In this document: positions 8,355 through 16,281 of the stretch, piece by piece
Numbering within the stretch: position 1 is the first letter of the stretch
Layout: every line of letters begins with the position of its first letter
Program-made: the position numbers and the translations under genes
Assembly: GCA_965250045.1 (NCBI GenBank)
Contig: OZ252286.1
Location: 2,034,355 to 2,098,354, forward strand
Length of the DNA stretch: 64,000 nt
From: Candidatus Marinacidobacterium sp.
GTDB lineage: Bacteria; Acidobacteriota; Vicinamibacteria; Marinacidobacterales; Marinacidobacteraceae
Direction of reading: 5' to 3'
Notes under the pieces: generated by a model
What the model saw: only the letters and a program-made list of their open reading frames with translations
The model's database searches: none
Told to the model about the DNA's origin: nothing

Positions 8355-10343
8355 ATGACGCAGATCACAAGGAAGTCAGTCCCAATGCGCGGGCTGATTC
8401 TCCTTCTTGCCATGTTCCTGGGTGCCGGTCTCGTGCTCTCGGGCTGCGGTGATGACGACACAACCACCACGCCGGCGCCGGCTCCCCCGCCGCCGCCAGC
8501 TCCCGAGCCCGAACCCGAACCCGAACCCGAACCCGAGCCCGAGCCCGAGCCCGAGCCCGAGCCGACTCCGTTCATGGTGGAGTTCTCGGTGCCGGAGGAT
8601 GCGAAGTCCGCGTTCCCGATGGTTCCGGATGACAGCATCAGTGCGGCTACGGCCATGGCCACGGTGAACCCCCAAATGATGGTCTCGGTGAACATGCCGG
8701 CCGTCGTGAGCCCGACGTTCGTCGAGGGCGCGAGCGCGATCGCACTGATTGCGGATGACAACACGCCGTTCACATACGTCAGTTGGGGCGCCCTCCAGGC
8801 CACGGTGATCGCCAGCGGAGCGACCTTCGCGGTCCAGCCGGTGGAGATCGGGGCCAACCAGATTCCGGTCCCGATCGGAGACGCGCACTACGTGACCTGC
8901 GGTCCGTTTGCGTGCGCGGCGGGCATAGAGGCGCCGGAATTCTCGATCGCCGACTCGGCGGTCTGCGGCGCTTGGGATCCGGAGCTTGAGCTTCAGGTCG
9001 GGCTCATCGACAACGATGTGGTCGGGCTCGACAGTGTGGACGCTGCAGATGAAGATGACGGCCTTGCGACCGACGACGGTGTCGATGTCGGCTGGCTTAC
9101 CACTTCCAGCTCGATCATGACCGTGAAGCACGTCTTCTCCGGCGTTGCCAACGGCTCGAACTACAGTCAAGCCGGCCCGAATGCGGGCAAGGGCTCGGAG
9201 TTGCCGCTGAAGATGGACCTGGTGGACCCGGACGTTGCGACCACCGCCGACGACAACGACAAGTACGGCGCCGCCATCCAGATCAATGTGAGTGACGCAA
9301 TCGCGGGTGCCGCCGGGACCAACGACAGCGCCTGCGTTCCTATCGCAGAATACGGCGCCACGATCGGTGCCAACCACCGGCCGGACAGCTGCTTCCGGGT
9401 TTCGGTCCAGGTCGCGTCCGCCTTCGGCACACCAAAGCGGACGAACTACCTCGACGGCTATTCGGTCCAAGTCGCGGCCAAGGGCTCCGCGGTCACCTGG
9501 GGCGACGTCGTCCGTGAGGTGAACCCGTTCAAGGCTCTGAAGTGCGAGTCCATGACCTTTGCGGCTGCCGACCAGGTTGATATCTGCGAAATGTTCGAAG
9601 CCGAAGTGGACCAGGCTCTGACTAAGGGCTGGGGCGGTACCAAGGGGGTTGTTGGCGTCGCGGGAGAGACCAGAACTACCGAGGGCAACGCTTCCGGCAC
9701 CGATGGCAGCGTCGCGGGCATGTGGTCCGTAGGAGTCGCAGCGACGCCCGACCGTTTCAAGTCTCTCTGGTTTGACGACAACCTGAACGGGAAGATCGCG
9801 AAGGACGGTGCGGCTGACCGTCCTCAGCAGTTTGACGCTCTCGGCGCGAATCCCGTCAAGGCCAACTCATCGCACGATCTGTACGATGACAACGCAAACC
9901 AGGCCAACATCGAAACGATCTGGGGGTATCTCGTGGACGAGGATGACGATCCGATTTATGGTGATTTCGGCAAGGTCGATCTCTACACCCGTACCCTCCT
10001 CAAAACGGATGATTCGGATACTCTCTTCACCGGGCCCGACACCGCGGATGAGGCAATTGCGCCCGACGGCAAGGCCGACAACTACCAGGGTCGGAAGGCC
10101 GAAACGTGCGATCCGGACGATGGTGGAAAGGATGCTTGCGACGCAGTGTGGTCCGAGGACTATGAGGTGTTGTTCACCGACGGCCTGTTTGGTTGCAGCA
10201 CCACGCGCCCGGTGACCATCACCTGCACGTGGGATGCGCAGGGCCAACAGAAGGCGAATCCTCCCGACGAGGCCGACCCTGATCTCACGGACGACACGGA
10301 CGGCGCGAACATCGCCAACTTCGCGAAGTGCACGGCCAAGTAG
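8355..10343 (+). CDS. Secreted lipoprotein, unknown function (signal peptide, lipobox LSGC, (PE)n linker, acidic Asp-rich body)
   Basis: Strong RBS AGGAGG before ATG; lipobox; (CCCGAR)x11 repeat encodes PEPEPE...; GC visibly lower (~60%) than surroundings. Confidence 0.75.
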   Translation: MTQITRKSVPMRGLILLLAMFLGAGLVLSGCGDDDTTTTPAPAPPPPPAPEPEPEPEPEPEPEPEPEPEPTPFMVEFSVPEDAKSAFPMVPDDSISAATAMATVNPQMMVSVNMPAVVSPTFVEGASAIALIADDNTPFTYVSWGALQATVIASGATFAVQPVEIGANQIPVPIGDAHYVTCGPFACAAGIEAPEFSIADSAVCGAWDPELELQVGLIDNDVVGLDSVDAADEDDGLATDDGVDVGWLTTSSSIMTVKHVFSGVANGSNYSQAGPNAGKGSELPLKMDLVDPDVATTADDNDKYGAAIQINVSDAIAGAAGTNDSACVPIAEYGATIGANHRPDSCFRVSVQVASAFGTPKRTNYLDGYSVQVAAKGSAVTWGDVVREVNPFKALKCESMTFAAADQVDICEMFEAEVDQALTKGWGGTKGVVGVAGETRTTEGNASGTDGSVAGMWSVGVAATPDRFKSLWFDDNLNGKIAKDGAADRPQQFDALGANPVKANSSHDLYDDNANQANIETIWGYLVDEDDDPIYGDFGKVDLYTRTLLKTDDSDTLFTGPDTADEAIAPDGKADNYQGRKAETCDPDDGGKDACDAVWSEDYEVLFTDGLFGCSTTRPVTITCTWDAQGQQKANPPDEADPDLTDDTDGANIANFAKCTAK

Positions 10344-10384
10344 TCGGAGCTTCTCGATAGTCAGCGATCTCCGCTGACTCTGGA

Positions 10385-13893: not shown

Positions 13894-16281
13894 ATGATCC
13901 GCTTCGCCTGTTCCTGCCTCATCGTCCTGTTCGCGCTTGGCGGGTGCTCCGCCAGATCGGGGTCGAACCCGGCTCCGCGAACGGCCACGCCGCCGCCGCC
14001 GGCTCCCCCGCCGGCGCCGGAGCCGCCGCCCCCGGTGAACGCACCCAACCCGCCACCCCGGCCGCCGGAGCCTCTGCCGGACGGCATCTGTATCCCCACC
14101 CATACCGGAGAGTGCATTCCGGCGCGGGAGTTTTTTTCCGCCGTTTGGGAACTTGCCAAGGAATACCGCCAGGACCGCAACTTCAAGGCGCAGTGGGGTC
14201 TTTTCGTGATCAACGCCCATCGGGCCTACGGGCACGTGAACCTGCTGGAGGGGCCGGACGTCGCGCCGGGAACCGGGGTGACCATCGGGGTGATCGACTC
14301 CGGCATCGACGTGGACCACCCGAGCTTCGAGGGCAAGACGATTCACCAGGAGTTCCTCTTCGGCGTCGAACAGGAGACCGGCGAGGACTTTTCCCACGGG
14401 ACCGCGGTGGCAAGCATCGCGGCGGGCGCGCAGATCGCCAACCCGAACGCCCCCCACGGGGTCGCTTGGGGCGCGGACCTCGCCGTGTGGGCGATCCCGC
14501 TGGGCGATCCCGACAACATCTACGATCCGATCACTCTCGAAGAGCTCGGCCAAGCGGACGCCGGGTTCGCCGAGATCTTCAAGCCGGTGTTCGCCTGGCG
14601 CGACGCGGGACGAGACCTCGACATCCTGAACCTGAGCTTCGGCTACGAGGGCATCATCAACGAATACAGCGAAGCGGGCCTCCGCGCGAACTTCGCGGAG
14701 ACGATCGCGACCCTGGCCCAGGCGGATGCCGATGAAAAGACGATCCTGGTCTGGGCGGCGGGAAACATGAATAACGACCGCTGCGCGGAAGGCATCTCGA
14801 ACTGCGAGAACGGCCGGATCAACGCCGTCTCCGTCGGCATCCTGCCGGGGCTCCTCGCCTACCTGGAGGAACTCCAGGGGCATTCCATCGCGGTGGTGGC
14901 GCTCAGCCCGGACGGCGGGAAGATCGCGGACTTCTCGAACCGCTGCGGCATCGCCTCCGAGTTCTGCATCGCGGCGCCGGGAGAAGAGGTCACGGTCGCC
15001 TACTTCGGGCCCGACGGCGAAGAGGACGGGGTGCGGGGTTACGCCGATGGCGGCGGGACCTCGTTCGCCGCCCCCATGGTCTCCGGCGGGCTCGCGGTGA
15101 TGAAGCACCTCTTCCGCGACCAGCTCTCGAACGAAGAGCTCGTGAGCCGGCTCCTGGTGACCGCCGATAACACCGGCATCTACGCCGACCGCGACGTCTA
15201 CGGCAACGGGCGGATGGACCTCGGCGCCGCCACCTCGCCGGTCGGGGTGCTGGACGTGCCCATCGACACCGGGATGGCGGCCATGGCGCACGCTTCGCTG
15301 AACTCCACCGGGCTCCGCCTCGGGGCGGCGTTCGGGGATGGGTTCGGGGAGGTTCTCGCGGACAGCGAGATCATGGCCCTCGACGACTTCGGGGCGCCGT
15401 TCTGGTACAGCCTGGGGAACTTCGCGGCCACCAGCGACGGCCCCTCGATGGGCGCGCGGCTCCGGACCTTTCTCGGGCCCGCGTCCGCATCGGGATCGGC
15501 GGTGGCCGGGACGGGAGGAGGCGGAGCGGGCTCGGGCCCCGCGGCTCTCGGGCTGAGCGCCTCGGTCCTGAGGATGCCGACCGCGACCGGGGGCGGGCAC
15601 CTCGCGCTCGCGGAGGGCGCGGTGATGGTGAGCGCCTTCGAGGAGGGAGGTCTTTCCGCGACCGCCTTCACCACCGCGACGATTCGGCCAAACCTGCCGG
15701 CGACCGGTGCGGTGCTGAGCTGGCGGCCGGGCGGGCTGCCGGTGGGCTTCCGGGTCGGCTGGGTCGAGGAGCCGGAGACCATGCTCGGGAGCATGGGGCA
15801 GGGGGCCTTCGGCAGCCTCTCGGCCGGGACCGCCTTCGTCGGCTTCGACGGCAACCTGAGCCTGGGGAGCTGGCGGTTCGGCGCGAGCGGGGAGTTCGGC
15901 GTCGTGAACCCCGAGACCCAGGGCGGGATCATCGGCGAAATCTCCCCGCTTTCGACCAGCACCTTTGCGCTCCACGCGACGACCGGATTCGCGGATTCGA
16001 GTTCCCTCAGCCTTTCGCTGTCCCAGCCGCTCCGGGTGGAAAACGGCTGGGCGTCGCTCACCGTGCCGTCGGCCCGGACGAAGCGGGGCGAGGTGCTGAA
16101 CCGATCGCTGCGGGCCGATCTGGCGCCCGGCGAGCGCCAGCTCGACGCTGCGGCGCAGTGGAACCGGCCCCTTCCGCTCGGCGAGTTCCGCCTGGGAGCG
16201 GTCTGGAGCCACTGGCCCGGCCACCGGGACGTCCTGGGGCCGCAGTTCGCGCTGCTCTCCGGCTGGCGCTGGACCTTCTGA
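13894..16281 (+). CDS. Subtilisin-like serine protease (S8) lipoprotein with probable C-terminal autotransporter beta-domain (SphB1-like)
   Basis: Lipobox LGGC and Pro-rich linker; catalytic motifs VIDSGID, HGTAVASI, GGTSFAAPMVSG; ~300-aa C-terminal region of alternating hydrophobics ending ...SGWRWTF (aromatic C-terminus typical of OM beta-barrels). Confidence 0.85.
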   Translation: MIRFACSCLIVLFALGGCSARSGSNPAPRTATPPPPAPPPAPEPPPPVNAPNPPPRPPEPLPDGICIPTHTGECIPAREFFSAVWELAKEYRQDRNFKAQWGLFVINAHRAYGHVNLLEGPDVAPGTGVTIGVIDSGIDVDHPSFEGKTIHQEFLFGVEQETGEDFSHGTAVASIAAGAQIANPNAPHGVAWGADLAVWAIPLGDPDNIYDPITLEELGQADAGFAEIFKPVFAWRDAGRDLDILNLSFGYEGIINEYSEAGLRANFAETIATLAQADADEKTILVWAAGNMNNDRCAEGISNCENGRINAVSVGILPGLLAYLEELQGHSIAVVALSPDGGKIADFSNRCGIASEFCIAAPGEEVTVAYFGPDGEEDGVRGYADGGGTSFAAPMVSGGLAVMKHLFRDQLSNEELVSRLLVTADNTGIYADRDVYGNGRMDLGAATSPVGVLDVPIDTGMAAMAHASLNSTGLRLGAAFGDGFGEVLADSEIMALDDFGAPFWYSLGNFAATSDGPSMGARLRTFLGPASASGSAVAGTGGGGAGSGPAALGLSASVLRMPTATGGGHLALAEGAVMVSAFEEGGLSATAFTTATIRPNLPATGAVLSWRPGGLPVGFRVGWVEEPETMLGSMGQGAFGSLSAGTAFVGFDGNLSLGSWRFGASGEFGVVNPETQGGIIGEISPLSTSTFALHATTGFADSSSLSLSLSQPLRVENGWASLTVPSARTKRGEVLNRSLRADLAPGERQLDAAAQWNRPLPLGEFRLGAVWSHWPGHRDVLGPQFALLSGWRWTF

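Follow-up and report, generated by a model that had tools for sequence, protein, structure and literature searches.

A coupled metzincin–lipoprotein gene pair and tethered envelope lipoproteins in Candidatus Marinacidobacterium

Genes and features of the window

The window analysed here is a stretch of 64,000 nucleotides from Candidatus Marinacidobacterium sp. (phylum Acidobacteriota; contig OZ252286.1 of assembly GCA_965250045.1) with a GC content of about 70%. It harbours two loci at which secreted proteases are encoded close to predicted lipoproteins: genes A to D at locus 1, where D codes for a subtilisin-like protease of family S8, and genes E and F at locus 2, where a metzincin gene (E) is followed by a lipoprotein gene (F). 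An earlier note on this DNA had proposed that at both loci a secreted protease forms a functional module with a lipoprotein carrying a fibronectin type III (Fn3) domain with the motif DFVEWTW. All six open reading frames (ORFs) of that note were found, all on the forward strand (Table 1). As set out below, E and F are the only true protease-lipoprotein module of the two loci, a conserved and tightly coupled two-gene unit, and the serine protease has lipoprotein neighbours only by a chance arrangement of genes.

Table 1. Positions of genes and other features in the window (aa, amino acids; CTD, C-terminal domain)
Feature	Position	Strand	Description
tRNA-Pro(ggg)	6747-6823		
Tandem duplication	7504-7585		41 nt, perfect register, 98% identical
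tRNA-Pro(cgg)	7803-7877	+	edge of variable envelope-protein region, 5' of gene A
Gene A	8355-10343	+	predicted acidic lipoprotein, 662 aa; lipobox LSGC, acidic run CGDDD, (EP)n tether, then head
Hairpin after A	10382-10411		strong, terminator-like, 13-bp stem
Gene B	10898-13072	+	predicted lipoprotein, 724 aa; ISAC, CGDEE, Pro-rich tether, about seven Fn3-like beta-sandwich domains
DFVEWTW motif of B	11129		
Gene C	13229-13564	+	secreted protein of a DUF5818-annotated family, 111 aa; type I signal peptide
Hairpin past C	13635-13650		terminator-like
Gene D	13894-16281	+	predicted lipoprotein S8 subtilase, 795 aa; lipobox LGGC, Pro-rich tether, S8 domain (residues 126-439), C-terminal region of ~220 aa
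Gene E	29231-30283	+	secreted metzincin, 350 aa; type I signal, HEVGHCLGLQH, Met-turn PVMSY, CarboxypepD_reg-like C-terminal beta-sandwich
Gene F	about 30333-31115	+	predicted lipoprotein, 260 aa; LSAC, 26-aa Pro-rich tether, Fn3 (residues 46-136), four-Cys CTD
DFVEWTW motif of F	30510		
CTD of F	30762-31097	+	residues 144-256; all-beta, four Cys, conserved
GC trough	51000-53000		GC content 0.50 vs about 0.70
ORF in GC trough	51035-52069	+	344 aa
AAA-type ATPase gene	53104-54351	-	415 aa

The E-F gene pair

The product of gene F ends in a conserved CTD with four cysteines, and an ORF encoding this CTD was located directly 3' of an E-like gene, on the same strand and at a spacing of 0-50 nt, in 13/13 assessable loci. 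These are the window and loci fetched from related genomes, which we designate by L-numbers (L001-L003, L006, L008, L010-L014 including a second paralogue in L011, L016 and L023; P-numbers below denote database homologues of F and of the Fn3 proteins). Among them are species-representative metagenome-assembled genomes of GTDB titled Vicinamibacteria, Acidobacteriota or Candidatus Marinacidobacterium, and the count includes two divergent E-CTD paralogue pairs (L006 and L011) with 37-39% identity. An overlap of 4 nt joins the homologues of E and F in L001-L003, L006 and L007. In the window, depending on the start codon (alternatives at 30261, as in the database copy P0001, and at 30303), F either overlaps with E by 23 nt or begins no more than 50 nt past the E stop codon. 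In L001-L003 the pair occupies the same position, directly upstream of a divergently transcribed M16 peptidase pair.

The identification of E as a metzincin in the earlier note was borne out by the motif HEVGHCLGLQH, a weak match to Pfam M10 (25.4 bits vs a cut-off of 24) and a family-wide Met-turn; the CarboxypepD_reg-like domain was matched as well. The patterns HE.GHCLGL.H and [VIL]M[STA][YH] (Met-turn) are kept in seven listed E-type ORFs, two of them divergent paralogues, and since zinc motif and Met-turn are both retained, the E family consists of genuine metzincins. A lipobox in E was rejected, as the sole early cysteine is at position 12, ahead of the hydrophobic core. We also observed a cysteine after the second zinc-binding histidine (HE.GHC) in 7/7 listed E-type metzincins, which is unusual for metzincins; redox control or a disulfide to a partner are possibilities.

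For F, we retrieved 26 database homologues, whose conserved part comprises the C-terminal ~110 residues, that is, the CTD. Identity amounts to 51-81% among the aligned CTD-only sequences and to 27% with the L006 paralogue; 17 positions are invariant, including the four cysteines in the pattern C1...C-x6-C-x4-C. The spacer ahead of the CTD varies: it is absent from P0005-P0017, consists of one Fn3 in the F of the window, P0003 and P0004 and of two Fn3 in P0002, and in the divergent L006 paralogue is made up of four repeated segments, without a Pfam match, which we read as immunoglobulin (Ig)-like from their sequence. Because most F homologues are devoid of an Fn3 and nevertheless keep the protease neighbour, the protease-linked part of F is the CTD and not the Fn3. 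The proposed protease-lipoprotein module thus exists at locus 2, as seen from the 13 loci, but with another domain than the one suspected, and it does not exist at the subtilisin locus.

The CTD family is small, with 19 representative clusters at E <= 1e-3 among 1.84 billion proteins, several of which are spurious repeat proteins. Scans against Pfam at E<=10, with the protease inhibitor family Inh included, yielded nothing for the CTD, and a sequence search of the PDB nothing meaningful; a multicystatin match (E 7e-4) was taken as chance, as it contained no significant stretch. An AlphaFold2 (AF2) model of F, with a pLDDT (predicted local distance difference test) of 80.5, has a confident Fn3 and an all-beta CTD. 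The block means of the CTD are about 77-88 outside a loop at residues 185-203, which is of low confidence yet conserved in sequence. Searching the PDB with this model by Foldseek returned tandem Fn3 or Ig pairs only, the search being dominated by the Fn3. As modelled, the CTD is an Ig-like sandwich without an informative relative.

A second short CTD-only ORF lies directly 3' of the F homologue in L016 (12923-13210) and L023 (9090-9416). These ORFs encode 95-108 aa as called and are 71% identical to the CTD of F, so that an E-F module can carry two CTD genes.

Genes A to C and the DFVEWTW-type Fn3 domain

A third DFVEWTW Fn3 lipoprotein, as counted in the earlier note, does not exist: a six-frame scan gave two DFVEWTW motifs only, one in B and one in F, and a profile of this Fn3 type matched B and F alone in the window, with 111 bits each. 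In B, which matches the fn3 model PF00041 (66.5 bits, E 2.5e-18), the DFVEWTW-type domain is the first Fn3 (residues 64-157); no enzymatic domain was found in this protein. The Fn3 of F has no Pfam match, its AF2 blocks over residues 41-130 average pLDDT 93-98, and the top Foldseek matches are Fn3. Comparison of the lipoproteins showed that B and F have a single Fn3 as their sole common domain (32% identity over 113 aa, E 2e-11), and that A is unrelated, without similarity to B or F outside signal peptide and linker. The sole Pfam match of A, Trypan_PARP, falls on its Pro/Glu-rich tether and is not meaningful. Homologues of A with 32-47% identity were found in L006, L007, L015 and L016, and B-like genes in L015, L016, L018 and L019.

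The suggestion that the DFVEWTW-type Fn3 recurs with proteases nevertheless stands, as this type is fused to metalloprotease domains in several proteins of relatives. In P0019, P0020, P0022 and a 365-aa protein of L015, a DF[VI]EW.W Fn3 is joined to an HExxHxxGxxH domain after lipobox and tether, and it occurs three times in a 1008-aa cadherin/PPC/metzincin protein adjoining E in L002. B-like lipoproteins with several Fn3 domains contain it as well. Related Fn3 domains (ITWTWD, ISWSWD) are present in the A-like protein of L016. A metagenome scan with the Fn3 alignment gave 5 loci, too few for a co-occurrence statistic. Judged from these sequences, the DFVEWTW Fn3 is an optional spacer.

For the small protein C, 136 homologues were found, the best 120 listed being 62-97% identical to C. 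A direct Pfam scan of C gave no meaningful match, PF19135 included; about half of these homologues (62-97% identity) carry a precomputed PF19135, and NCBI gives one with 84% identity the name 'DUF5818 domain-containing protein'. A literature search on DUF5818 returned no papers, and a PDB sequence search with C nothing meaningful. The conserved motif C...HKGCATGC suggests that C might bear a metal or redox site. The sequence LASC of C was rejected as a lipobox, its cysteine being present in only 20/120 homologues. As a side observation, C (also found at 7001-7333 in L015 and at 10001-10336 in L016) is far more conserved than its neighbours, with 82-97% identity in most listed homologues, and is repeatedly located just downstream of a B-like Fn3 lipoprotein gene.

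According to the earlier note, the Fn3 lipoproteins would be protease-specific anchors, adaptors or inhibitors for subtilisin and metzincin, with C acting as a propeptide-like inhibitor or chaperone of the subtilisin. Both DFVEWTW proteins of the window are indeed encoded within one to two genes of a protease, and in relatives this Fn3 type is often fused to, or adjoins, metzincin domains. On the other hand, B and F have only the one Fn3 in common, most F homologues dispense with it while keeping their protease neighbour, and the D homologues of L006, L007 and L017 have neither B nor C upstream. Protease adjacency of the Fn3 lipoproteins is likewise not general, since the B-like arrays of L018 and L019 lack a protease within the examined flank of roughly 2.5-6 kb. 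A role of C as subtilisin propeptide or chaperone is unlikely, as other genomes have C adjoining E or an A paralogue, and as a terminator-like hairpin of its own follows C; the hairpins after A and after C suggest separate transcripts. We consider this reading of the Fn3 family very improbable, and for the subtilisin and C it is largely refuted.

The S8 subtilase D

The assignment of D to the S8 subtilisins is firm: PF00082 matches residues 126-439 with 118.6 bits (cut-off 21.8; Peptidase_S8, E 4.4e-34). Residues D135, H168, N291 and S390, whose catalytic roles we assigned by motif context (DSGID, SHGT, AAGN and GTSFAAP), and the lipobox cysteine are invariant in 33 aligned homologues. A total of 1613 homologues were found, the best 120 listed having 63-97% identity at 89-100% query coverage, and these are named as Acidobacteria S8 peptidases. 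By its sequence conservation, D represents a core gene of a highly conserved family. In relatives, two or three close paralogues of D-family S8 lipoprotein genes occur (L007 10001-18558; L017 1651-12388), interleaved with genes for metzincin-bearing and Ig-repeat lipoproteins.

The C-terminus of D had been described as autotransporter-like, which was not confirmed. Its 333 C-terminal residues have no match in Pfam or NCBIfam even at E<=10 (PF03797 and TIGR01414 included) and none in a PDB sequence search, and hhalign against the beta-domains of the E. coli autotransporters flu, yfaL, ypjA and ycgV gave a probability of 0.2%. In the 120 listed homologues PF00082 is the sole domain, and the EprS model matches the S8 part only. 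The AF2 model of D, which is based on a shallow alignment (identity >= 63%), has a mean pLDDT of 37 and draws about 13 beta-strands at residues 577-793 after a short helix. With this low-confidence model, 50/50 listed Foldseek matches in the PDB were beta-barrel outer-membrane or cell-envelope proteins (porins, intimin, EspP/BAM, TamA and an S-layer complex), all at a non-significant E >= 0.019. The protein ends in ...LLSGWRWTF, where G790, W791, R792, W793 and F795 are invariant, and thus has the C-terminal aromatic residue of a beta-signal. Model, Foldseek matches and the GWRWTF end are weak evidence, on which we tentatively regard a beta-barrel at the C-terminus of D as probable.

By analogy, D probably works like SphB1 of Bordetella and NalP of Neisseria, which are lipidated subtilisin-like autotransporters of type Va; membership in their family is not established. 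SphB1 has a Gly/Pro-rich stretch after its lipobox. It is held at the surface via its N-terminal lipidated cysteine (PMC13421274). D resembles these proteins in combining a lipoprotein signal with an S8 domain, and in its predicted C-terminal beta-strand meander with the beta-signal-like GWRWTF. It differs in having neither an autotransporter profile match nor a long beta-helical passenger, in belonging to a different phylum, and in being highly conserved and often present as 2-3 tandem paralogues.

Gene order and base composition

In relatives, D keeps the downstream genes for a TPR protein, gcvT, gcvH and gcvP; upstream of it we found integrases, extra S8 paralogues, metzincins and unrelated genes. 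The pairing of subtilisin and lipoprotein is not conserved. The loci L016 and L017 belong to one contig with the order tRNA-Pro(cgg), A-like gene, B-like gene, IS21, C, E, F and the extra CTD-only gene (identities to the window are 93% for C, 76% for E and 57% for F), which is followed by ~20 kb including an integrase and then by D beside the TPR-gcvTHP genes. In this relative, the two loci of the window are one cluster, with the subtilisin excluded. In L015, tRNA-Pro(cgg), two A-like genes, C, B-like genes and an Fn3-metalloprotease-like gene are clustered with an integrase. A-like genes are thus flanked by tRNA-Pro(cgg) in both L015 and L016. Locus 1 is probably the border of a variable region next to tRNA-Pro(cgg), one that integrases have visited in relatives, and B and C would abut the core gene D only since the window genome lacks roughly 30 kb separating them in the relative. 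The two tRNA-Pro genes of the window are about 980 bp apart without a convincing ORF, and the tandem duplication lies between them.

The lower GC content ascribed to these genes in the earlier note is real at third codon positions (GC3) for A (0.78), B (0.75), E (0.75) and F (0.74), but not for C (0.94) and the subtilisin gene D (0.90), which are normal. The reference value is 0.884 +/- 0.032, from 25 reference genes that were pre-filtered at GC3 >= 0.8, so that the contrast is slightly generous. Amino-acid composition does not explain the dip, because the GC3 expected from it is 0.88-0.89 for all six genes. In related genomes, the same families have a GC3 of 0.71-0.84 (0.88 in one A-like gene of L006), that of housekeeping neighbours is 0.86-0.94, and C and D are normal there too. 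Since the same families dip in related genomes, the dip is a long-standing family trait and not a mark of recent import into the window genome.

These data bear on the possibility that A, B, E and F entered recently as one or more genomic islands, at tRNA-Pro and the ridA|M16 junction, and are grouped as cargo of mobile elements and not by a common function. The idea draws on a GC3 of 0.10-0.14 below the reference genes, on tRNA-Pro immediately upstream of A, and on integrases and IS elements in the equivalent region of L006, L007, L015, L016 and L017. In the window, however, neither an integrase nor a tRNA-derived direct repeat was found between 6500 and 17000, and the sole repeats in an att-like direct-repeat search were DNA coding for the Pro-rich tethers. 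Moreover, E-F is at the same position upstream of the M16 pair in L001-L003, and the GC3 dip shared with related genomes speaks for an old trait of envelope genes that are flexible and evolve fast. Recent horizontal acquisition, which had been suspected earlier, is therefore not indicated, and we judge an island origin to be improbable.

The lipoprotein tether cassette

A lipobox cysteine followed by a Pro-rich tether is found in A (LSGC, about 42 aa), B (ISAC, about 38 aa), D (LGGC, about 47 aa) and F (LSAC, about 26 aa). With [LVI][ASTVI][GAS]C closing a hydrophobic signal as the lipobox criterion, these four were the sole genuine cases in all six frames of the window, and by their lipobox they are predicted lipoproteins, processed by signal peptidase II. 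The earlier tally of four tethered lipoproteins plus the subtilisin was one too high, as there are four in all and the subtilisin D is one of them. In the D family the lipobox cysteine is invariant; in that of F, its conservation reaches at least 90%.

The first 35 residues of A, comprising signal and lipobox (8355-8460), are 89% identical to the A-like protein of L016 (1035-1139), the remainder merely 32%. The signal peptides of A and B (10898-11000 for the latter) share 52% identity, in contrast to their unrelated mature proteins. Because identity in the signal region far exceeds that of the rest, these sequences suggest that the N-terminal export and tether cassette may be exchanged or conserved independently of the head.

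We propose that this lineage builds many of its envelope proteins from a kit of lipoprotein signal, tether, spacers and a C-terminal functional head. The tether would comprise 25-50 Pro-rich residues, which we read as a rigid rod of the polyproline-II type resembling the spacer of TonB. From none to several spacer domains, Fn3 or Ig-like, would follow, the DFVEWTW Fn3 being the usual first one of the lineage. In the window, the heads would be an acidic domain in A, the S8 protease with the beta-barrel-like domain in D and the CTD in F, with none past the Fn3 array in B. Metzincins are frequent heads or neighbours of such lipoproteins.

The lipid cysteine is followed by an acidic run in A (CGDDD), B (CGDEE) and 18/29 F-family sequences (CE[DE] or CDD). 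Lipid cysteine, a small or polar residue, an acidic run and then Ig/Fn3-like arrays are also seen in Bacteroidota surface lipoproteins of the SusE/F-like type. The Bacteroidota lipoprotein export signal is C-x-K-(D/E)2, SDDDD or SDDFE (PMC5080379). Taken as a polar or basic residue ahead of two or more acidic ones at +2 to +5, which would drive surface exposure, the signal is resembled by the runs of A, B and F in sequence only, and the host phylum differs.

Role of the F C-terminal domain

In the mechanism that we envisage for locus 2, the soluble secreted metzincin E would be co-made with the tethered F, whose partner-specific part would be the CTD. The CTD would dock E, and F would thereby fix how far from the membrane the protease sits. 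Such docking could be regarded as a non-covalent version of the single-chain tethered metzincins of relatives (L017 4367-6565, the 1008-aa protein of L002, the 365-aa protein of L015, P0019 and P0022). Among these, the L017 protein is encoded upstream of D and has Ig-like spacers instead of Fn3, and the L002 protein is 31% identical to the catalytic domain of E (E 1e-4). That the CTD of F binds E in an anchoring or presenting role is a tentative proposal, to which we assign slightly less than an even chance. Anchoring is favoured here because E has only a Sec signal, the spacer of F differs in length as a stalk would, and covalent fusion does the same job in relatives.

Known lipoprotein adaptors for soluble envelope enzymes are NlpI, for Prc, and LpoA/LpoB, in which a long linker past the lipid anchor, unstructured or rigid, sets the reach. 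They have no known homology to F and are not known to be encoded with their partners as overlapping gene pairs, so that the comparison is an analogy only.

Alternatively, the CTD could be a cognate inhibitor or protective partner of E that is tethered in the periplasm and neutralises the protease before export. Strict adjacency and translational coupling of E and F would fit such a role, as would a small, all-beta, Cys-rich domain (with putative disulfides) that has a sequence-conserved flexible loop. With its HExxHxxGxxH motif and MSY-type Met-turn, E resembles the metzincins of the serralysin/astacin type, and serralysins have adjacent inhibitor genes. For the serralysins AprA/PrtA with Inh/AprI, the likeness extends to the S-x-M-S-Y-like Met-turn and to the adjacent gene for an all-beta protein of ~100 aa; E differs by its Sec signal and the absence of RTX or type I secretion system domains. 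Known Inh proteins insert their free N-terminus into the active site. The CTD caps the C-terminal end of a stalk, so inhibition by an N-terminal trunk cannot apply, and, the chance-like multicystatin match aside, it matches neither the Inh family nor any inhibitor in Pfam or among PDB sequences. Another good precedent is the Mep72-BamI operon of Pseudomonas aeruginosa, where a secreted metzincin with extra beta-sandwich domains is encoded beside a small binding partner; Mep72 is toxic in E. coli unless the adjacent bamI is co-expressed, and the two proteins bind (PMC4334185). F differs in being a tethered lipoprotein with optional Fn3 spacers. Such long and variable spacers (zero to two Fn3, or the four segments read as Ig-like) are unusual for inhibitors, and the L006 paralogue lacks the conserved loop. 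On these grounds, we regard inhibition as unlikely, though by no means far-fetched.

Returning to anchoring, we lean slightly towards an overall interpretation that combines the envelope kit, E-F as the true module and chance adjacency at locus 1. Several points weigh against it. The gene adjacency that suggests binding of E to F may partly reflect inherited synteny within one phylum-level lineage, and the fold of the CTD offers no functional clue. The conserved loop at residues 185-203 of F, predicted at low confidence and absent from the L006 paralogue, is as compatible with an inhibitory or substrate-like role as with docking. The metzincin domains of the fused proteins are merely distantly related to E, and the topology of D is not established by its model. 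In E. coli, an aspartate at +2 after the lipid cysteine leads to retention in the inner membrane. Acidic residues at +2/+3 would thus mean inner-membrane retention by the E. coli rule and surface export by that of the Bacteroidota.

A bolder variant of the anchoring proposal, which we consider distinctly unlikely, is that E-F constitutes a previously undescribed two-component surface-display system of the Acidobacteriota, in which the CTD would capture a Sec-secreted metzincin at a tunable distance. The lipoprotein would combine an acidic motif akin to an export signal, the stiff polyproline rod and exchangeable Fn3/Ig spacers with the new four-Cys beta-sandwich. If this were true, the N-terminal cassette would be a general device for export and presentation of surface lipoproteins in this little-studied phylum.

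Most of the abundant Acidobacteriota are uncultured, and knowledge of their envelope construction and their use of extracellular proteases is scant. The analysis defines a small uncharacterised CTD family with a strict link to one metzincin family, a tether-plus-spacer cassette that can be reused in envelope lipoproteins, and a conserved S8 protease, predicted to be lipidated, whose C-terminus is probably a barrel. CTD, cassette and D are concrete targets for studying protease anchoring versus inhibition and the surface exposure of lipoproteins outside Proteobacteria and Bacteroidota. No new principle is involved, as operons of a protease and its partner, subtilisin autotransporters with a lipid anchor and stalks made of Fn3 domains are already known. 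What the analysis adds is of modest novelty, a narrow new domain family and a lineage-specific variation on familiar themes. The observations of the earlier note are partly confirmed and its interpretation is partly supported: it was right in spirit for locus 2, where it named the wrong domain, and wrong for the subtilisin and C.

Further observations

Apart from the two loci, the window contains a sharp GC trough (Table 1). The 344-aa ORF within it has, by our reading of its sequence, an N-terminal helix-turn-helix-like region and an ATPase-like core, and it adjoins the gene for the AAA-type ATPase on the opposite strand. This region looks like a recent foreign insertion.

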